Part shown: in pieces, positions 3,131 to 21,292 of the stretch
Numbering within the stretch: the first letter of the stretch is position 1
Layout: each line of letters starts with the position of its first letter
Assembly: GCF_054482595.1 (NCBI RefSeq)
Contig: NZ_CM137008.1
Length of the DNA stretch: 64,000 nucleotides
Direction: 5' to 3' (one strand)
The notes under the pieces: generated by a model
The model's database searches: none
Seen by the model: only the letters and a program-made list of their open reading frames with translations
What the model was told of the DNA's origin: nothing
Made by a program: the position numbers and the translations under genes

Positions 3131-6100
3131 ATGGGTAAAGGCAGCAGTAAGGGGCATACCCCGCGCGAAGCGAAGGACAACCTGAAGTCCACGCAGTTGC
3201 TGAGTGTGATTGATGCCATCAGCGAAGGTCCGGTTGAAGGTCCGGTGGATGGATTAAAAAGCGTGCTGCTGAACAGTACGCCGGTGCTGGACAGCGAGGG
3301 GAATACCAATATCTCCGGCGTCACGGTGGTGTTCCGGGCAGGCGAGCAGGAGCAGACACCGCCGGAGGGATTTGAATCCTCCGGCTCCGAGACGGTGCTG
3401 GGTACGGAAGTGAAATATGACACGCCGATCACCCGGACCATCACGTCTGCAAACATCGACCGTCTGCGTTTTACCTTCGGCGTGCAGGCACTGGTGGAAA
3501 CCACCTCAAAGGGGGACAGGAATCCGTCGGAAGTCCGCCTGCTGGTTCAGATCCAGCGTAATGGTGGCTGGGTGACGGAAAAAGACATCACCATTAAGGG
3601 CAAAACCACCTCGCAGTATCTGGCCTCGGTGGTGGTGGGTAACCTGCCGCCGCGCCCGTTTAATATCCGGATGCGCAGGATGACGCCGGACAGCACCACA
3701 GACCAGCTGCAGAACAAAACGCTCTGGTCGTCATACACCGAAATCATCGATGTGAAACAGTGCTACCCGAACACGGCACTGGTCGGCGTGCAGGTGGATT
3801 CGGAGCAGTTCGGCAGCCAGCAGGTGAGCCGTAATTATCATCTTCGCGGGCGCATTCTGCAGGTGCCGTCGAACTATAACCCGCAGACGCGGCAATACAG
3901 CGGTATCTGGGACGGAACGTTAAAACCGGCATACAGCAACAACATGGCCTGGTGTCTGTGGGATATGCTGACCCACCCGCGCTACGGCATGGGGAAACGT
4001 CTTGGTGCGGCGGATGTGGATAAATGGGCGCTGTATGTCATCGGCCAGTACTGCGACCAGTCAGTGCCGGACGGCTTTGGCGGCACGGAGCCGCGCATCA
4101 CCTGTAATGCGTACCTGACCACACAGCGCAAGGCGTGGGATGTGCTCAGTGATTTCTGCTCGGCGATGCGCTGTATGCCGGTATGGAACGGGCAGACGCT
4201 GACGTTCGTGCAGGACCGACCGTCGGATAAGGTGTGGACCTATAACCGCAGTAATGTGGTGATGCCGGATGATGGCGCGCCGTTCCGCTACAGCTTCAGC
4301 GCCCTGAAGGACCGCCATAATGCCGTTGAGGTGAACTGGATTGACCCGGACAACGGTTGGGAGACAGCGACAGAGCTTGTGGAGGACACACAGGCCATTG
4401 CCCGTTACGGTCGTAACGTCACGAAGATGGATGCCTTTGGCTGTACCAGCCGTGGGCAGGCGCACCGCGCCGGGCTGTGGCTGATTAAAACGGAACTGCT
4501 GGAGACGCAGACCGTGGATTTCAGCGTGGGTGCTGAAGGGCTTCGCCATGTACCGGGCGATGTCATTGAAATCTGCGATGATGACTATGCCGGTATCAGC
4601 ACCGGTGGTCGCGTGCTGGCGGTGAACAGCCAGACCCGGACGCTGACGCTCGACCGTGAAATCACGCTGCCATCCTCCGGTACCACGCTGATAAGCCTGG
4701 TTGACGGAAGTGGTAATCCGGTCAGCGTGGAGGTCCAGTCCGTCACCGACGGCGTGAAGGTGAAAGTGAGCCGGGTTCCTGACGGCGTTGCCGAATACAG
4801 CGTGTGGGGACTGAAGCTGCCGACGCTGCGCCAGCGCCTGTTCCGCTGTGTGAGTATCCGTGAGAATGACGACGGTACGTATGCCATCACCGCCGTGCAG
4901 CATGTACCGGCAAAAGAGGCCATCGTGGATAACGGGGCGCACTTTGACGGCGACCAGAGCGGAACGGTAAACGGTGTCACGCCGCCAGCAGTACAGCACC
5001 TGACCGCAGAAGTCACCACAGACAGCGGGGAATATCAGGTGCTGGCGCGCTGGGACACGCCGAAGGTGGTGAAGGGCGTGAGCTTCCTGCTTCGCCTGAC
5101 CGTGGCAGCGGATGACGGCAGTGAGCGGCTGGTCAGCACGGCCCGGACGACGGAAACCACATACCGCTTCACGCAGCTGGCGCTGGGGAATTACAGGCTG
5201 ACAGTCCGGGCGGTAAATGCGTGGGGACAGCAGGGCGATCCGGCATCGGTATCGTTCCGGATTGCCGCACCGGCAGCACCGTCGCGGATTGAGCTGACGC
5301 CGGGCTATTTTCAGATAACCGCCACGCCGCATCTTGCGGTTTATGATCCGACGGTACAGTTTGAGTTCTGGTTCTCGGAAAAACGGATTGCTGATATCAG
5401 GCAGGTTGAAACCAGCGCGCGTTATCTTGGTACGGCGCTGTACTGGATAGCCGCCAGTATCAATATCAAACCGGGCCATGATTATTATTTTTACGTTCGC
5501 AGTGTGAACACCGTTGGCAAATCGCCATTCGTGGAGGCTGTTGGTCAGCCGAGTGATGATGCGTCCGGCTATCTGGATTTTTTCAAAGGAGAGATAGGGA
5601 AAACCCATCTGGCTCAGGAGCTGTGGACGCAGATTGATAACGGTCAGCTTGCGCCTGACCTGACTGAAATCAGGACGTCCATAACGGATGTCAGCAATGA
5701 AATCACCCAGACCGTTAACAAGAAACTGGAAGACCAGAGTGCAGCGATCCAGCAGATACAGAAGGTTCAGGTTGATACAAATAATAACCTGAACAGCATG
5801 TGGGCAGTGAAGCTGCAGCAGATGCAGGACGGACGCCTTTATATTGCGGGTATCGGTGCCGGTATTGAGAACACCCCCGACGGCATGCAGAGTCAGGTGC
5901 TGCTGGCTGCAGACCGGGTGGCATTTATTAACCCGGCGAATGGTAACACCACTCCTGCACTGGTCACACAGGGCGGACAGACGTTTATTAATGAGGCGCT
6001 GATCAAGTTCCTTATTGCTCCCACGATTACCAGTGGTGGCAATCCTCCGGCATTCTCCCTGACACCTGACGGAAAGCTGACTGCTAAAAATGCGGATATC

Positions 6101-6607
6101 AGTGGCAGTGTGAATGCGAACGCCGGGGCGCTCAACAACGTCACGATTAATGAGAGCTGTACTATTAAGGGGATGCTTGATGCTAACCAGGTGCGTGGTG
6201 ATTTTGTAAAAACGACAGGGCATCGATTTCCGCACCCCGGAGAATACCCACAGGGTTCACTTACCGTTCATATTAAGGACGATCATGCCTTTGACAGGCA
6301 GATTATAATTCAACCAATCATGTACGGTGCACCACCATATTTTAGTAAAAATGATGGCGCTAATATCTACGATACCTGCAGATTAATTGTGCGCAAAAAT
6401 GGCAATGTAATCTATGACAAATCCACTAGTGGTTCGAAAAGGACAACAGTCGTGTACAGCAATATCATTGATATGCCAGTGGGGGACGGAGATGTAATAT
6501 TAACATTTGAAGTTCAGTCGAGCGGCAGTGGAGATCCCAGAACATGGATCAGTGATTTAATGGTCTCGGTAACGAAAAAAGCCGCATCCGGTATCAGTAT
6601 CAGTTGA
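3131..6607 (+). CDS. J: Tail tip host-specificity protein J with a divergent C-terminal receptor-binding region
   Basis: 1158-aa ORF resembling lambda gpJ over most of its length; the last ~120 codons are visibly AT-rich and unlike lambda J as I recall it. Confidence 0.9.
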
Positions 6608-6626
6608 AATTTTTATAACCCCAATA

Positions 6627-6653
6627 CGGGCGCCAGAAATGGCGCCTTTTTTA
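6627..6653 (+). terminator. Rho-independent terminator downstream of J
   Basis: gggcgcc-agaaat-ggcgcc hairpin followed by tttttt. Confidence 0.65.
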
Positions 6654-6676
6654 TTGCAGAAAAGCGAGAGGTAATT

Positions 6677-7276
6677 ATGCGTAAAGTTTGTGCAGCCATT
6701 TTTTCCGCAGCCATCTGTCTGGCCGTATCCGGTGCGCCTGCATGGGCGTCTGAACATCAGTCCACACTGAGCGCAGGGTATCTTCATGCCCGTACGAACG
6801 CACCCGGCAGCGATAATCTGAACGGGATTAACGTGAAATACCGTTATGAGTTTACGGACACACTGGGGCTGGTGACGTCATTCAGCTATGCAGGAGACAA
6901 GAATCGCCAGCTTACCCGTTACAGCGATACCCGCTGGCATGAAGATTCAGTGCGTAACCGCTGGTTCAGCGTGATGGCGGGGCCCTCTGTGCGCGTGAAT
7001 GAATGGTTCAGTGCGTATGCGATGGCGGGCGTGGCTTACAGCCGTGTGTCGACTTTTTCCGGGGATTATCTGCAGGTGACCGACAGCAAGGGGAAAACGC
7101 ACGATGTGCTGACCGGCAGTGATGACGGTCGCCACAGCAACACGTCTCTGGCGTGGGGGGCTGGCGTGCAGTTTAACCCGACCGAATCCGTGGCCATTGA
7201 TATTGCTTATGAAGGCTCCGGCAGTGGCGACTGGCGCACTGACGGTTTCATCGTGGGCGTCGGTTATAAGTTCTGA
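6677..7276 (+). CDS. lom: Lom outer-membrane protein (Ail/Lom family; prophage accessory gene)
   Basis: 199-aa ORF with signal peptide, resembling lambda Lom; RBS gagagg upstream. Confidence 0.9.
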
Positions 7277-7301
7277 TTAGCCAGGTAACACAGTGTTATG
7301 A

Positions 7302-7334: not shown

Positions 7335-10259
7335 GTGAATATGGCAGTAAAGATTTCAGGTGTACTGAAAGACGGCACAGGAAAACCGGTTCAGAACTGC
7401 ACAATCCAGCTGAAAGCAAAACGTAACAGCACCACGGTGGTGGTGAACACGCTGGCCTCAGAAAATCCGGATGAAGCCGGGCGTTACAGCATGGACGTTG
7501 AGTACGGTCAGTACAGCGTTATTCTGTTGGTGGAAGGATTCCCGCCGTCACATGCCGGGACCATCACCGTGTATGAAGATTCCCAACCCGGTACGCTGAA
7601 TGATTTTCTCGGTGCCATGACGGAGGATGATGCCCGTCCGGAGGCTCTGCGCCGTTTTGAACTGATGGTGGAAGAGGTGACGCGTAACGCGTCCGCGGTG
7701 GCACAGAACACGGCAGCCGCGAAGAAGTCAGCCAGTGATGCCGGCACATCTGCCCGTGAGGCGGCAACCCATGCGACTGATGCTGCAGGCTCAGCGCGTG
7801 CAGCCAGCACGTCAGCCGGACAGGCCGCGACTTCGGCTCAGGAGGCGTCTTCCAGCGCAGGAACGGCATCAACAAAGGCCACTGAAGCATCAAAAAGTGC
7901 TGCCGCTGCAGAGTCCTCAAAAAGCGCGGCGGCCACCAGTGCCGGTGCGGCGAAAACGTCAGAAACGAATGCTGCAGCGTCACAAAAATCAGCAGCCACT
8001 TCTGCATCCACTGCGACGACGAAAGCGTCAGAAGCCGCCACTTCAGCCAGAGATGCGGCGGCCTCCAAAGAGGCGGCAAAATCATCAGAAACGAACGCCT
8101 CCACAAGCGCCAGCAGTGCAGCCTCCTCGGCAACGGCGGCAGGAAATTCCGTGAAGGCGGCAAAAACGTCCGAGACGAATGCCAGGTCTTCTGAAACGGC
8201 AGCGGAACAGAGCGCCTCAGCTGCGGCAGACTCTGAGACAGCAGCTGCATCATCGGCCCGTGAGGCGTCCATTAAGGCAGAGGAGGCAGCAGTCAGTGCC
8301 ACCGCCGCCGGAAAATCGGCAGAAAGCGCCGCATCATCCGCTTCAACAGCCACAACGAAGGCTGGCGAAGCCACTGAACAGGCCAGCGCAGCAGCGAGGT
8401 CTGCTTCCGCAGCGAAGACATCCGAAACGAACGCGAAAGCGTCGGAAACCAGCGCAGAATCCTCAAAAACGGCTGCCGCATCGTCCGCCAGTTCGGCGGC
8501 GTCATCGGCATCATCTGCGTCTGCTTCAAAAGATGAGGCGACCAGACAGGCGTCAGCAGCGAGGGGCAGCGCCACGACGGCATCCACGAAGGCGACAGAG
8601 GCTGCTGGCAGTGCGGCAGCGGCAGCACAGAGCAAAAGTACGGCGGAATCCGCGGCAACGCGCGCCGAGACAGCAGCAAAACGGGCAGAGGATATTGCAT
8701 CCGCCGTGGCGCTTGAGGATGCGAGCACGACGAAAAAGGGGATAGTACAGCTCAGCAGTGCGACCAACAGCACTTCCGAGTCACAGGCGGCAACGCCAAA
8801 AGCCGTTAAGGCCGCGTATGACCTGGCTAACGGGAAATACACCGCACAGGATGCAACGACAGCACAGAAAGGGATAGTTCAGCTCAGCAGTGCGACTAAC
8901 AGCACTTCCGAGTCACAGGCGGCAACGCCAAAAGCCGTTAAGGCCGCGTATGACCTGGCTAACGGGAAATACACCGCACAGGACGCTACGACAGCACAAA
9001 AAGGAATTGTCCAGCTCAGTAGTGCAACCAACAGCACATCTGAAACGCTTGCTGCGACACCGAAAGCAGTGAAAGCAGCTAATGACAATGCGAATGGTCG
9101 GGTACCTTCTGCCCGTAAGGTGAATGGTAAGGCGCTTTCAGCGGATATAACACTGACGCCGAAAGATATTGGTACGCTTAACTCAACAACAATGTCATTC
9201 AGCGGTGGTGCTGGTTGGTTCAAATTAGCAACGGTAACCATGCCACAGGCGAGTTCTGTTGTTTCAATTACGTTGATTGGTGGCGCTGGATTTAACGTGG
9301 GGTCACCTCAACAGGCAGGTATATCTGAACTTGTTTTACGTGCAGGTAATGGTAATCCGAAGGGGATTACTGGTGCTTTATGGCAGCGCACATCGACAGG
9401 GTTTACAAATTTTGCCTGGGTCAATACATCTGGTGATACTTACGATATTTACGTTGCAATCGGAAATTATGCGACTGGTGTAAATATTCAATGGGATTAT
9501 ACCAGTAATGCCAGCGTGACGATTCATACGTCACCAGCATATTCTGCTAATAAGCCGGAAGGGTTAACGGACGGTACAGTTTATTCACTCTATACGCCAT
9601 CAGAGCAGTTTTATCCGCCTGGCGCACCAATCCCGTGGCCATCAGATACCGTTCCGTCTGGCTATGCCCTGATGCAGGGGCAGACTTTTGACAAATCTGC
9701 CTACCCGAAACTTGCAGCCGCTTATCCGTCAGGCGTGATCCCTGATATGCGTGGCTGGACGATTAAGGGCAAGCCCGCCAGTGGTCGTGCCGTATTATCT
9801 CAGGAACAGGACGGCATTAAATCGCATACCCACAGTGCCAGTGCATCCAGTACGGATTTGGGGACGAAAACCACATCGTCGTTTGATTACGGCACTAAAT
9901 CCACGAATAACACCGGAGCGCACACCCATAGTGTCAGTGGTACGGCTGCTTCTGCAGGGGCACATACACACACGGTTGCCTGTTACCCATCTGGCAATAC
10001 CGAGCAGGGCGATAAAGCCCTCAAAGGTGCGTCTCGTGCAGGCTCGAGTACTGGCACATCGTCAGCCGGAGCGCATACCCACCCGGTGTCAGGTACTGCT
10101 GCAAGTGCAGGTGCACACGCGCATACTGTCGGTATTGGTGCTCATACGCACTCCGTTGCGATTGGCTCACACGGACACACCATCACCGTTAACGCTGCTG
10201 GTAACGCGGAAAACACCGTCAAAAACATCGCATTTAACTATATTGTGAGGCTTGCATAA
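7335..10259 (+). CDS. stf: Side tail fibre protein (Stf-like) with Ala/Ser/Thr-rich shaft, 44-aa tandem repeats and His-rich C-terminal repeats
   Basis: 974-aa ORF; N-terminus resembles lambda Stf; long low-complexity A/S/T region; three 44-aa repeats; C-terminal GAHTHxV repeats. Confidence 0.85.
8739..9134 (+). repeat. Three tandem copies of a 132-bp (44-codon) unit inside stf; copies 1 and 2 nearly identical, copy 3 diverged
   Basis: Units begin at 8741, 8873 and 9005 (gatagtacagctcagcagtg... / gatagttcagctcagcagtg... / gaattgtccagctcagtagtg...); each encodes [25 protein letters not shown]. Confidence 0.85.
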
Positions 10260-10843
10260 TGGCATTCAGAATGAGTGAACAACCACGGACCATAACAATT
10301 TATAATCTGCTGGCCGGAACTAATGAATTTATTGGTGAAGGTGACGCATACATTCCGCCTCATACAGGTCTGCCAGCAAACAGTACCGATATTGCACCGC
10401 CAGATATTCCGGCTGGCTTCGTGGCTGTTTTCAACAGTGATGAGGCATCGTGGCATCTTGTTGAAGACCATCGGGGTAAAACAGTTTATGACGTGGCATC
10501 AGGGAACGCGTTATTTATTTCTGAACTCGGCTCATTACCGGAAAATGTTACCTGGTTATCCCCGGCAGGGGAGTTTCAGAAGTGGAACGGCACAGCCTGG
10601 GTGAAGGATACGGAAGCAGAAAAACTGTTCCGGATCCGGGAGGCGGAAGAAACAAAAAACAGCCTGATGCAGGTAGCCAGTGAGCATATAGCGCCGCTTC
10701 AGGATGCTGTAGATCTGGAGATCGCAACGGAGGAAGAAAACTCGTTGCTGGAAGCCTGGAAAAAGTATCGGGTGTTGCTGAACCGTGTTGACACATCAAC
10801 TGCACCTGATATTGAGTGGCCGGAAGAACCAGACACAATGTAA
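10259..10843 (+). CDS. tfa: Tail fibre assembly protein (Tfa)
   Basis: 194-aa ORF resembling lambda Tfa; its ATG overlaps the stf stop (TAATG). Confidence 0.9.
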
Positions 10844-11189
10844 GCGAAAAAGAAAAACCGCAGACACGACGTATGCAGGACGTGCTGCGGTTGGCTGGTG
10901 AACTTTCGATAGTGCGAGTATTGAATGATTTCCAGCCGTTACCGATTTTATATAACTGCAGTGGAATTATTCAACACACAGGCAAAACGGAATAAGCTGA
11001 GAAAAAAGCGTGCTTTCCCAATCTGGGGCAAATCACGTCTGAATGACACCTGAAAACAGGTGGTGGACTCAAGACGGCTTGGAATATTCTTCTTTAATGT
11101 TATGTAATTCATTGATTTTTCGTGTACGATTTTAAGACATTTATTCCAAGAAAAATTTTTAACTCTTTGATTTTTCGACTCTGTATCAT

Positions 11190-11251
11190 CGGTCTCGAAA
11201 ACCGGAGTAGGGGCAACTCTACCGGGGGTTCAAATCCCCCTCTCTCCGCCA
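11190..11251 (+). other. serU: 3' fragment (62 nt) of a tRNA-Ser gene: anticodon arm, variable arm, T-arm and 3' acceptor strand ending CCA; read as the prophage attR core
   Basis: cggtctcgaaaaccggagtaggggcaactctaccgggggttcaaatccccctctctccgcca matches the 3' two-thirds of E. coli tRNA-Ser(CGA) as I recall it; the upstream sequence does not match the 5' acceptor/D-arm. Confidence 0.8.
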
Positions 11252-11820
11252 CTTTATCAATGACTTATCTCCCGACTTCCCGCCTTGCTTTTCCTAAACA
11301 GAACAATCGTAGAATATTCTTGAAGGGTTAGATCGTCACTGTTTTCTGTTCGATACTGTGACATTCAGCACTTGATTCGCTATGGATCTGACAGGAAGCT
11401 TTCGAGCGAAAATGTGCAGTTATTCAGTCGTTTTCTTATCGCTCACCATTATTCTTTTAGACATTCATCCTATGAAACTGCCGCAAAGTTGGTGGTGGGA
11501 ACTGAAGTTGCGTAGAGAAGGGTTCAATAATTGAGTCAAAAAAGGAACGCGGCCGTCAGATTAAAGCCGCGGGACAAAGTCCATAATTTCCAAGAGTTGT
11601 TGAATTTCCCAGCTTTTTTGAAAGCCTTTGTATCATACTAACAAGTAAAAAAGGTTTAAATACCAAAATTAACCTGTATTTTTGATAAGTCTTACCATTG
11701 TACGATTTACACAGTTTCTGCTCCTCCTTGTTGATAGTGGAAAGGGTGCATTGTGCACTTGCGTAAACATTTATGACGCGTTGATGTCCATGGTTCACAT
11801 TTCCTTGTCAGGGGATCGAC

Positions 11821-12351
11821 TTATTTGCGGCGAGGCATCATTCGTAACAGAGTATTATCTTTCTGAATGTAGTGATGAAAGAGTGCTGCGCCAGCGTGAG
11901 CTGCGATTAAAAAGTAACCTATATTTGCCCAGGTTTCGTGAATATTTTTTATCAGTGCTTTAATTTCGCTGTTTGGGGTAACAAAGGGAGACACATTGAA
12001 ACCAAGGAAACTCCACGATTTTCCACTGTAAGCCATCAAAGCAATCCCCAGCAGAGGAAGTGCAAGGAAGGTTATATAAAGCATGATGTGCATTAGCGAA
12101 GCCGCTTTCATTTGCCAGGCAGGTGGCGGTGGCACAATAGAAGGATCACTATAACGGTGTTTTATAATCAGGCGTGAAAACATTAACACCCAAACGAATA
12201 TACCCGCATTGTAATGTGTTTCTCGCATCAGCAGATAAGTACTACTACCTTTAGGAAACCAGCCACGGAGTTCCATCGCGGCATAGGTTATTGCAACGAA
12301 AAGCAGCGTTATCCAATGTAAATAAATTTGAGTTTTTGAGAATCGGTTCAT
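11821..12351 (-). CDS. yodB: Cytochrome b561 family protein
   Basis: Translation from the internal ATG (MNRFSKTQIYLHW...) gives 176 aa; caggag RBS upstream; multiple TM segments with conserved His. Confidence 0.85.
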   Translation of the reverse strand: MNRFSKTQIYLHWITLLFVAITYAAMELRGWFPKGSSTYLLMRETHYNAGIFVWVLMFSRLIIKHRYSDPSIVPPPPAWQMKAASLMHIMLYITFLALPLLGIALMAYSGKSWSFLGFNVSPFVTPNSEIKALIKNIHETWANIGYFLIAAHAGAALFHHYIQKDNTLLRMMPRRK

Positions 12352-12693
12352 TTTTGTAGCTCCTGTAATTTTTACAGTCAAGCTATCCCACGAACCTTAA
12401 AAATTCCTTATACAGATGTGGTTTTAAGAATTTGTTATTTAAAAAATTGATAGTGCACATTGTAACCAGCCAATATAAGCAATGGCGTGAGCACAGGTAT
12501 CTTTCTCTGTTGGCCGTATTGTGTATGGAATCCGTTATTGGTTAACTCAATGCGGGTTAGCTTATTAATATACAGACACGTCATAGTGATGAGCGTGTCT
12601 GTAGCTAGCTTGCGTTCAGTGGCGTTTGTGGATGGACCAGTGGCAGTTATGATGACTTACTAAAGCGGCATCGAGGCGTTATCATGAGAATAC

Positions 12694-19475: not shown

Positions 19476-20663
19476 TTAGAACTGGTAGACTAAGCCCACA
19501 GCCACGATATCATCGGTAGCGATGCCGTTTTCTTTGTAGAAGTCGTCGTCGTTGTCCAGCAGGTTGATTTTGTAATCAACATAAGTGGACATGTTTTTGT
19601 TGAAGTAGTAGGTCATACCAATATCAACATATTTAACCAGATCTTTGTTGGTGTAATGATGATTACCCTGGCTGTCGAAGTTATCACTATTTACACCGCC
19701 TAAATCCTTACCTTTAGATTGCAGGTAAGCGATGGACGGGCGCAGGCCAAAGTCGAACTGATACTGAGCAACAACTTCAAAGTTTTGGGTTTTGTTAGCG
19801 ATGGCATCAGCATCACCGTAACCAGTCATGTTACGGGTTTCAGCATACATAGCTGCTAAGTAAACGTTATTAGCGTCATATTTAGCACCAACGGTCCATG
19901 CTTCTGCTGTTTCACCGCCAGCAGTTGCATCGAAGCGATCTCCATAACGAATGTTATGCAAACCTTTGTGAACCTGATTGTCAGTACGGTCAGAATTAGA
20001 ATATGCAGCACCCAGACTTAAACCGAAGTCGAAGTCATAGGAAGTGGACATACCGAAGCCGTCGCCGTTCTCTTTAGCTAACTTACGGCCATTACCGTTA
20101 CCAGAACCTTCCTGACCGAATAATCCATCATCTTCATTATTACCCTGATATTGCAAAGCAAAGTTCAAGCCATCGACCTGACCAAAGAAGCCATTGTTAC
20201 GGTAGGTTGCAACACCATTAGCACGACCGTTCATGAAGTTGTCAGCGCCAGCATAGGTATCGCCACCAAATTCTGGCAGCATATCGGTCCATGCTTCTAC
20301 GTCATATACGACACCGTAGTTACGACCATAGTCGAAAGTACCATTCTGACCAAAGCCTAAACCTGCAAATGCCAGACGCGTTGCGGTATTACCCTTGTCG
20401 CTTTCAGGACCGTTTGCGCCAATGTTAAATTCCCACTGACCATAACCAGTGAATTGATCAGCGATCTGAGTTTCACCTTTGAAACCGATACGGGCATATG
20501 ACATGTCGCCATCGCTGCCAGAATCATCAGAGAAGTAGTGCAGACCCACTACTTTTCCGTACAAATCCAGTTTATTACCATCTTTATTATAGACTTCAGC
20601 CGCATTTGCTGCGCCAGCAACTAATAATGCCGGGACCAGCATTGCCAGAACTTTTCTTTTCAT
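19476..20663 (-). CDS. yedS: General-diffusion porin (OmpC/OmpF family), intact
   Basis: Signal peptide [37 protein letters not shown] start and terminal F typical of porins; position next to hchA matches yedS; the ORF-track start at 20693 is an upstream extension. Confidence 0.8.
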
Positions 20664-21292
20664 TATGTATTCCCTTGTGATTATAATCTTCATGAATATA
20701 TCAATAAGTGCCGTTATCCAAAAAAAAGCACATTTGGATACTATTCTATGAAGTTCATTTTATTTTAAAGATTACATGTAACAAATGTATTTAAAAGATT
20801 TCAAAATGTTTCTAATCTATTTAATATAATTTAGAATTATGAATTCTAAATATAAATATTCATGAAAATTATAAATGTATATCAATATGTTATGAGTTGA
20901 GCGGAAGCATAGGGGGTATCAATGATTGTTGCGCCAAACGGCTGGTGTGATCACGCGCACATTAATGAAGGCATAAAAAAAAGCCGGCATCATGCCGGCC
21001 CAAAAAATATAAACAAGACGATAAAAGGCTAATAACGGAGGCATCATGACACAGAAAAATAAAAAGGTATAATTGTATTCAGTGCTAATATATTGATTAA
21101 ATGAATTAATAAAGCCGATCTCAAAGATAAATAAAATCGCTCAAAACGATTTTTCCTGTATTCACTGCCGTTGCGCAAAAATTATCTATTTGTTCAAAAA
21201 ATGAGTGAGTCTTGACTGGCTCATCCAATGTGGAAAAATGTGACTTTTATCACATAATAGTACTAAGTCTGAATTTTCCGGGTTATCTCAAA

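Follow-up and report, generated by a model that had tools for sequence, protein, structure and literature searches.

What does the AT-rich end of a tail gene reveal about the receptor of the phage that carries it? The stretch of DNA considered here, 64,000 nucleotides of contig NZ_CM137008.1 (RefSeq assembly GCF_054482595.1; hereafter the window), starts inside a lambdoid prophage, among its tail genes, and contains gene J (3131..6607, + strand), which encodes the central tail fibre or tip attachment protein and is intact at 1158 amino acids according to the open reading frame (ORF) list and its translation. It had been proposed from the sequence alone that the last part of J is a swapped receptor-recognition module, AT-rich against the GC-rich rest of the gene, dissimilar to the end with which lambda J binds LamB and probably directed at another receptor. 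The peptide quoted in this original prediction is indeed the C-terminus of J (ORF 3131..6607). We consider it highly probable that the J end is a distinct and rare allele of the "specificity module" exchanged among lambdoid phages. The proposed swap is upheld by an identity collapse that includes synonymous sites, by a sharp boundary, and by the occurrence of the same cassette on differing J backbones.

Boundary, composition and predicted fold of the J end

The divergent end corresponds to J's receptor-binding domain (RBD), an immunoglobulin (Ig)-like domain of the Pfam family Ig_GpJ_C (PF12421) that takes up the last 136 codons of the gene, G1023-S1158 (6197..6604, + strand). Amino acid identity to lambda is 40-45% over residues 1023-1158, compared with 83% overall when the two J proteins are aligned at full length. 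In the conserved hub and fibronectin type III (FNIII) part, residues 1-800 (3131..5530, + strand; GC about 0.59-0.60), identity is 98% to lambda J and 97-99% across lambda, 434, 21, Kati and other carriers of the window RBD. The expectation that most of J is like lambda holds for these 800 residues, however, a divergent patch at about residues 801-960 had been missed. This segment (5531..6010, + strand) comprises the alpha-helical shaft and the upper beta-prism, domain names which follow PMC11101478, and is a second exchangeable segment, present here as its "long" allele. It carries a net insertion of 28 residues relative to lambda, and its identity is 37-47% to lambda and 434 and 84-100% to phage 21 and Kati. 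Between this segment and the RBD lies the lower beta-prism, residues 961-1022 (6011..6196, + strand), which is conserved (amino acid identity is 76-85% when all alleles are compared with it and 95-100% between J proteins that carry the window RBD) and is likely to be the left homology arm for exchange.

At the DNA level, the identity of J to other alleles peaks at 0.88-0.97 near 6046-6112 and collapses at 6178-6211. Megablast similarity to all 253 matching phage records ends at 6160-6211, with that to 434, mEp460 and Kati reaching furthest, to 6211. Kati showed low identity in local alignment around 5947-6010, yet its spanning megablast hit was 94.6% identical overall and its protein identity over residues 871-960 was 0.86; the local DNA alignment to Kati was used from 6013 onward only. 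Identity to lambda at third codon positions falls from 0.8-1.0 upstream to 0.15-0.44 in the divergent end. The module starts sharply at G1023 (6197); the step originally placed at 6240 is real, but the start lies about 30-45 nucleotides further upstream.

The contrast in composition between the J end and the rest of the gene was confirmed by the GC profile, by segment fitting and by codon shuffling. GC content is 0.416 at 6240-6607 vs. 0.574 at 3131-6239 (z = -5.8), and a three-segment maximum-likelihood fit gave GC values of 0.60 (to 5305), 0.51 (5306-6255) and 0.41 (from 6256). GC at third codon positions (GC3) drops from 0.715 over 3131-5539 to 0.41 over 6212-6604, and within the RBD itself (6197..6604) GC is 0.426 and GC3 0.397. 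None of 5000 codon shuffles of J matched the observed minimum over 123 codons (0.412; lowest shuffled value 0.431). Against the entire 64-kb window, however, the GC content of the J end sits only at the 15th percentile, and the AT-rich step stands out against the rest of J but not on the scale of the genome. The RBDs of 434, 21 and A8 have a GC content of 0.47-0.48, below that of their own upstream parts (about 0.56-0.57), while the lambda RBD is at 0.56 and the window allele, at 0.43, is the lowest. Non-lambda alleles normally show such a dip in GC at the RBD, and it is the lambda RBD that is the exception.

J belongs to PHROG 31 ("central tail fiber J"), and its Pfam domains occur in the order FNIII-A_GpJ, Phage-tail_3, Ig_J, Ig_J_second, Phage_Tail_Tip and Ig_GpJ_C. 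The last of these lies at the extreme C-terminus, after the hub, Ig/FNIII, shaft and beta-prism parts, and matches residues 1038-1158 (E 2.8e-30; model positions 17-135 of 135). A phmmer search of the Protein Data Bank (PDB) with the last 205 residues, a query that included conserved fibre segment as well as the RBD, returned A8 gpJ713 (E 2e-67) and lambda gpJ (8xcj/8iyk; about 1e-55). An AlphaFold2 (AF2) monomer model of the RBD, with a predicted local distance difference test score (pLDDT) of 81.8, is a beta-sandwich of strands alternating up and down. Its best Foldseek matches were 9wcb_F (A8 gpJ with OmpC) and 8xcj_F (lambda gpJ with LamB), each with a template modelling (TM) score of about 0.73, and across 9wcb, 8xcj, 8xck and 9wca the E values ranged from 3e-17 to 1e-15 and the TM scores from 0.69 to 0.74. 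The structure prediction that had been suggested for the C-terminal domain therefore yields an Ig-like model matching the beta-sandwich fold of solved gpJ RBDs, the match being that of a predicted model. The motifs GDxVK, DDxxFDRQ, NG, MPxGxG and KKxxxGIS are largely conserved across RBD alleles, and these conserved motifs sit in fibre-side turns, the first strand and the C-terminal tail.

Because alignment, Pfam match and predicted fold all agree with the lambda RBD, the J end is read as a divergent allele of the same domain and not as an unrelated module. The description of the J end as unlike the LamB-binding end of lambda is apt with respect to its 40-45% identity, but goes too far in that the two align from end to end, fall in the same Pfam family and share a predicted fold. 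A good alignment to lambda J had also been named as grounds for giving up the idea of a swapped module: the two ends can readily be aligned, but their identity stays at that low level.

The relationship to known RBDs is one of rough equidistance. RBD identity is 45% to lambda (LamB), 48-49% to phage 21 and 4A7 (LamB), 47% to A8 and 47-49% to 434, mEp460 and Kati. The lambda gpJ RBD (residues about 995-1132; PDB 8XCJ/8XCK; LamB) shares the Ig_GpJ_C family, the position at the fibre end, the predicted Ig-like fold and the scaffold motifs with the window RBD, in which, however, predicted loops L1 and L4 are shorter and L2 and L3 longer, and GC is 0.43 vs. 0.56. The A8 gpJ RBD (PDB 9WCA/9WCB; OmpC) is the best match in both sequence and structure among solved structures and has the same family and loop architecture, although identity is only 47% and the two differ in frequency (about 2400 vs. 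22 of 5426 E. coli genomes). Long-tailed Stx1a-converting phages and PhiR70_1 carry a J RBD that is 100% identical to the engineered A8 gpJ RBD. With 434, mEp460 and Kati, window J has in common the last beta-prism layer plus the first RBD strand (18 residues) and the KKAASGISI tail, but L1 and L2 of the 434 type are longer. Phage 21 J has an RBD of the same family (48% identity) and shares the long shaft (96% over residues 801-870). Gifsy-1 J and HK97 J were dropped as comparators since their C-termini are unrelated, the HK97 J end being 18% identical to the window RBD.

Predicted receptor-facing loops

The lambda RBD inserts four bottom loops, L1-L4, into LamB (Ge and Wang, PMC11101478), and natural J homologues have four indel hot spots, at lambda positions 1012, 1048-49, 1077-78 and 1107 (Maddamsetti et al., 2018, PMC6646904). 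The texts of PMC11101478 and PMC12617516 contain no residue-level list of gpJ-LamB contacts, and because no published contact lists were found the loops of the window RBD were positioned from AF2 secondary structure together with the hot spots of PMC6646904. Predicted loop L1, an inter-strand segment of the AF2 model (residues 1032-1041; 6224..6253, + strand), aligns with lambda 1012, has an identity of 19-40% and includes the change Y1039S. L2 (residues 1065-1081; 6323..6373, +) aligns with lambda 1048-1049 at 12-24% identity, with the changes K1073R, N1074K and G1076D, and L3 (residues 1097-1106; 6419..6448, +) aligns with lambda 1077-1078 at 0-20%, with K1103R. L4 (residues 1131-1142; 6521..6556, +) aligns with lambda 1107 at 25-50%, and indels are found in each of these loops. 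By alignment, the four variable RBD segments are the hot-spot sites of Maddamsetti et al., and we infer by analogy with lambda, and from the model, that L1-L4 are the receptor-contact loops.

Divergence is concentrated in these segments, with identity to lambda, 434, 21 and A8 amounting to 0.56 in the RBD scaffold vs. 0.24 in the four predicted loops. From L1 to L4, identity is 0.29, 0.12, 0.00 and 0.40 to lambda (with indels in all four), 0.30, 0.15, 0.20 and 0.50 to A8, and 0.19, 0.24, 0.20 and 0.25 to 434. The window RBD consequently falls into none of these types: the contact loops of lambda are not retained, and neither A8 (47% over the RBD) nor 434 (48%) shows the high identity, loops included, that membership of its type would imply. 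The allele does fit the correlated pattern described by Maddamsetti et al. (PMC6646904) for a recombining C-terminus with four lineage-defining indel hot spots and fast evolution at lambda 1107, since residues are deleted at sites 1012 and 1107 and inserted at sites 1048-49 and 1077-78.

Variation within the allele was examined in 14 copies of the window RBD, which differ at 0-5 of 411 nucleotides. Six of the seven nonsynonymous polymorphic codons lie in the four predicted loops. Codon 1135 (6533..6535, + strand; GAT, Asp, in the window) in L4 is hypervariable among these near-identical copies, its states being GAT, GAG, GAA, GCT, CAG and AAT (D/E/E/A/Q/N). The strong signal of ongoing selection lies in these repeated hits at codon 1135. 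D1135 aligns with lambda D1107, a residue that evolves fast in nature and must change to Lys for lambda to use OmpF (PMC6646904). Codon 1135 is thus a natural example beside the laboratory finding on lambda 1107 in receptor shifts.

Exchange, frequency and alternative origins

Comparison among carriers shows that the window RBD moves as a recombining cassette and that J is assembled, mosaic-like, from three or more exchangeable parts. The first 800 residues hardly vary, and the RBD exists in many forms. Residues 801-960 exist in a long form (window J, 21 and Kati) and a short form (lambda and 434). The window RBD is found with the long form in Santai, SM107 and SLK172 and with the short form, in a J of 1130 amino acids, in Z1323CEC0001/0004 and three IMG/VR contigs, and it is also joined to differing beta-prism segments. 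At 97-100% identity, it sits on J genes whose residues 801-960 are either 37-48% or 82-100% identical, and of two prophages that carry it one has an HK97-type head, the other a lambda-type head. Two properties expected of a specificity module are therefore present, namely a history independent of the rest of J and a clustering of variation and indels at the counterparts of lambda 1012, 1048-49, 1077-78 and 1107. Exchange would most likely proceed by homologous recombination, with the lower beta-prism as left flank and the J-lom junction plus lom as right flank; this is the most economical route because these flanks are conserved among all alleles. Exchange of the J C-terminus altering host specificity is common and well documented (PMC6646904; PMC11338833; PMC12312913 for Gifsy-1). 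As a separate observation, the long and short shaft forms reassort freely with RBD alleles.

The allele is rare. Among 5426 complete E. coli genomes, 22 carry it, at 98.7-100% identity, and the best of the remaining matches are 71-73% identical over 128 nucleotides; it is also present in 5 IMG/VR contigs. By comparison, 434-type RBDs are present in 2086 of the same 5426 genomes and A8/21-type RBDs in 2402 (about 44%), while the lambda type is confined to 97 (1.8%), all at 99% identity or above; among the matches listed, the lambda-type carriers are three in number and all laboratory strains. A non-lambda RBD is the norm in E. coli. No window RBD above 60% protein identity was present in 50,697 phage records. 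When 1.84 billion cluster representatives were searched exhaustively with phmmer, 93 family members were returned, none above about 60% and none at full length above about 50%. This search serves to bound family size and to list the other allele classes, as full-length J proteins cluster together at the 50% level and the window allele cannot appear there as a cluster of its own. Family members by allele include many of the 434 type, many of the A8 type, a large group at about 63% to phage 21 and several other classes. A set of 5.8 billion proteins (55 candidates, returned as fragments) yielded an E. coli fragment at 96% identity, with the range from there down to about 50% empty. All named database relatives of the window RBD are from E. 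coli. An exact 10-residue diagnostic motif gave no hit in 100,044 GTDB species representatives or in 241 million metagenome records, a weak test that is uninformative on origin, given the rarity of the allele and the need for an exact match.

Could the J end have arrived at its present state by another route? Divergence in place, through rapid point mutation under diversifying selection and with no recombination, would draw on the fast evolution of receptor-binding loops, on the repeated substitution of codon 1135 and on the capacity of laboratory lambda to switch receptor with about 4 mutations (PMC6646904). It is nevertheless very improbable in the face of a third-position identity to lambda as low as 0.15-0.44, a GC3 shift of 0.3 across a few tens of nucleotides, the identical cassette on different upstream J alleles, and the gap between about 50% and 96% in the protein sets searched, which holds no intermediates. 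Decay of the J end into nonfunctional sequence within a cryptic prophage is scarcely credible: many E. coli lambdoid prophages are defective and several carriers have an insertion sequence (IS) in stf, but here the ORF is full length, the scaffold motifs are kept, the fold is confidently predicted, the tail genes of the Santai prophage are annotated intact, and copies in 22 genomes and 5 IMG/VR contigs keep an identity of at least 98.7%, their differences falling mainly on residues of the loops. Nor are frameshifts or stops seen in most copies, as decay would predict.

A more serious candidate, though still an unlikely one, is a recent transfer from a phage of a lower-GC genus other than Escherichia, with AT-richness as the donor signature. 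The GC of 0.43 and GC3 of 0.40 are below those of other RBDs (GC 0.47-0.56) and of the host part of the window (0.49), and an allele that is rare and uniform in E. coli (98.7-100%) fits a recent arrival. On the other hand, the exact-motif scans, weak as they are, recovered no copy from the 100,044 GTDB species or the 241 million metagenome records, the named relatives are all E. coli, the sequence on either side is what lambdoid phages of E. coli typically have, and other RBD alleles also lie below the rest of J in GC. The exchanged specificity module remains the preferred account of the J end, with some points weighing against it. The loop assignment derives from a monomer AF2 model (17-sequence alignment) and from strand alternation, not from coordinates of a complex. 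The clustering of nonsynonymous changes in loops (about p = 0.01, simple binomial) is weak because the loops also hold three of the four synonymous polymorphisms. Finally, no donor lineage outside E. coli was found that would account for the low GC.

Several observations on the carriers can be added. Poultry (chicken, duck, turkey or simply "poultry") is the source of 15 of the 22 carrier genomes, humans of 6 and mink of 1. A single Korean chicken series, the Z1323CEC strains, accounts for eight of them, and the enrichment in poultry may reflect sampling or clonality. An identical J allele is located at 8902-12378 of NZ_CP130669.1, plasmid pSM107_MCR, a 111-kb mcr-named plasmid with a lambda-like prophage (lambda-type head and tail, integrase), and strain SM107, the host of this plasmid, bears another identical copy on its chromosome. 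In two other carriers stf is interrupted, by ISApl1 in one and ISVsa5 in the other, and these prophages are at least partly defective.

Candidate receptors and the genes around J

All characterised members of this RBD family bind trimeric porins, these being LamB (lambda and 21), OmpC (A8, 1A2 and 434) and OmpF (evolved lambda). Phage 434 is said to have been assigned to OmpC by Hantke in 1978. By analogy, the receptor of the window RBD would be a porin. Which porin cannot be read from class-level similarity, because A8 and phage 21 RBDs are 81-82% identical and yet use OmpC and LamB, respectively, whereas those of lambda and phage 21 are 49% identical and both use LamB. Phage 21 J uses LamB natively and evolves OmpC and OmpF use. 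In rough terms, OmpC or a variant of it is the leading candidate, though short of an even chance, some other porin (OmpF, PhoE, OmpN/NmpC or YedS-type) or something else altogether follows as a considerable possibility, and LamB comes last. The BASEL papers and a receptor-prediction preprint were set aside, as they deal with Drexlerviridae-type J or downstream receptor-binding protein loci and gave no lead for a receptor of the lambda type.

By homology with lambda and A8, three copies of the RBD would be arranged at the tip of a trimeric fibre, with the four distal loops of every copy inserting into the extracellular face of a trimeric porin. Binding would then spread the three RBDs, twist the beta-prism, flip the helical shaft and open the tail tip for DNA ejection, as in the triggering mechanism of PMC11101478. 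This picture of porin binding by a trimer and of tail opening is carried over from PMC11101478 and PDB 9wcb.

The original prediction that the receptor is not LamB is likely to be right, if unproven. Since all four predicted loops differ in length and sequence, the mode of LamB contact used by lambda is unlikely in the window RBD, but the phage 21 RBD is itself a LamB user at 49% identity to lambda. It is accordingly conceivable, if improbable, that the window allele still binds LamB as a divergent form like the phage 21 RBD, in which case host range at the level of the receptor would be unchanged and the difference would be limited to fine specificity or to escape from variants of LamB. In support of this, phage 21 combines that 49% identity with native LamB use and the window allele is as close to 21 (48%) as to any other; in addition, the side fibre of Ur-lambda binds OmpC while its J binds LamB, and the window prophage has a lambda-like Stf and Tfa. 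Set against it are the predicted contact loops, all four of which differ from those of both lambda and 21 in length and sequence, and the fact that most characterised natural alleles, and the common E. coli ones, are OmpC binders (A8, 1A2, 434 and phi330). We regard as doubtful, though worth entertaining, a further suggestion that the window allele recognises a receptor new for lambda-type J, such as an accessory porin (YedS-type, OmpN/NmpC or PhoE) or a lineage-restricted OmpC variant, with residue 1135 tuning specificity.

The window itself contains an intact OmpC-family porin gene of 397-405 amino acids at the yedS locus (19476-20693, - strand), between hchA and drpB/yedJ and annotated in RefSeq as "porin OmpC." The yedS gene is a pseudogene in K-12. 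This YedS-type porin gene lies 13 kb downstream of the J end, and as a receptor candidate its product is speculative.

What is specific to this locus is a rare allele, roughly equidistant from known ones, with a pronounced compositional offset and a naturally hypervariable residue at the position homologous to the key host-shift site of lambda. Maddamsetti et al. (PMC6646904) compared 1207 homologues, and receptors were not assigned to natural lineages. J RBD cassettes have been used in retargeting lambda-based DNA-delivery particles, for example in OmpC-binding A8 and 1A2 chimeras (PMC11338833), and the window RBD offers itself as a candidate from which a new specificity or a retargeting module might be had, with the hypervariable residue 1135 to explore. 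Otherwise the locus illustrates known lambdoid mosaicism, leaves current understanding unchanged and would not surprise a specialist.

Downstream of J, a consensus scan identified an intrinsic terminator-like hairpin (6628-6647, + strand) with a T run to 6657, and phages 434 and mEp460 have an annotated terminator at the same place after J. It is followed by lom (6677..7276, +; PHROG 108 and RefSeq annotation), which encodes an Ail/Lom outer-membrane protein, is 85-100% identical in DNA among carriers of the window RBD and is likely to be the right homology arm. Positions 5900-7300 match E. coli O157:H16 strain Santai at 100%, and all tail genes of the Santai prophage, which joins an HK97-type head module to a lambda-type tail and has an end adjoining yodB/zinT, are annotated as intact. 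The next gene is stf, an intact side tail fibre gene assigned to PHROG tail-fibre families (7335..10259, +; 974 amino acids from a GTG start, with the annotated ATG start at 7341), the C-terminal 245 amino acids of which are 69% identical to lambda orf-314. It is followed by tfa (10259..10843, +; PHROG 105), for a tail fibre assembly protein with 94% identity to lambda orf-194.

The stf gene has several features of its own. A long region rich in Ala, Ser and Thr shows an AT skew of about +0.4 over 7800-9000, and a 132-nucleotide tandem repeat at 8734-9037 (2.3 copies) encodes a repeating 15-residue motif. GC falls to 0.43-0.48 at 9000-9600, and the His-rich tip, 69% identical to that of lambda, differs by indels. 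Stf is probably another mosaic specificity module. Beyond tfa, the stretch at about 10850-12000 up to the host gene yodB is AT-rich (GC 0.38-0.45) and presumably represents the prophage end or attachment junction.

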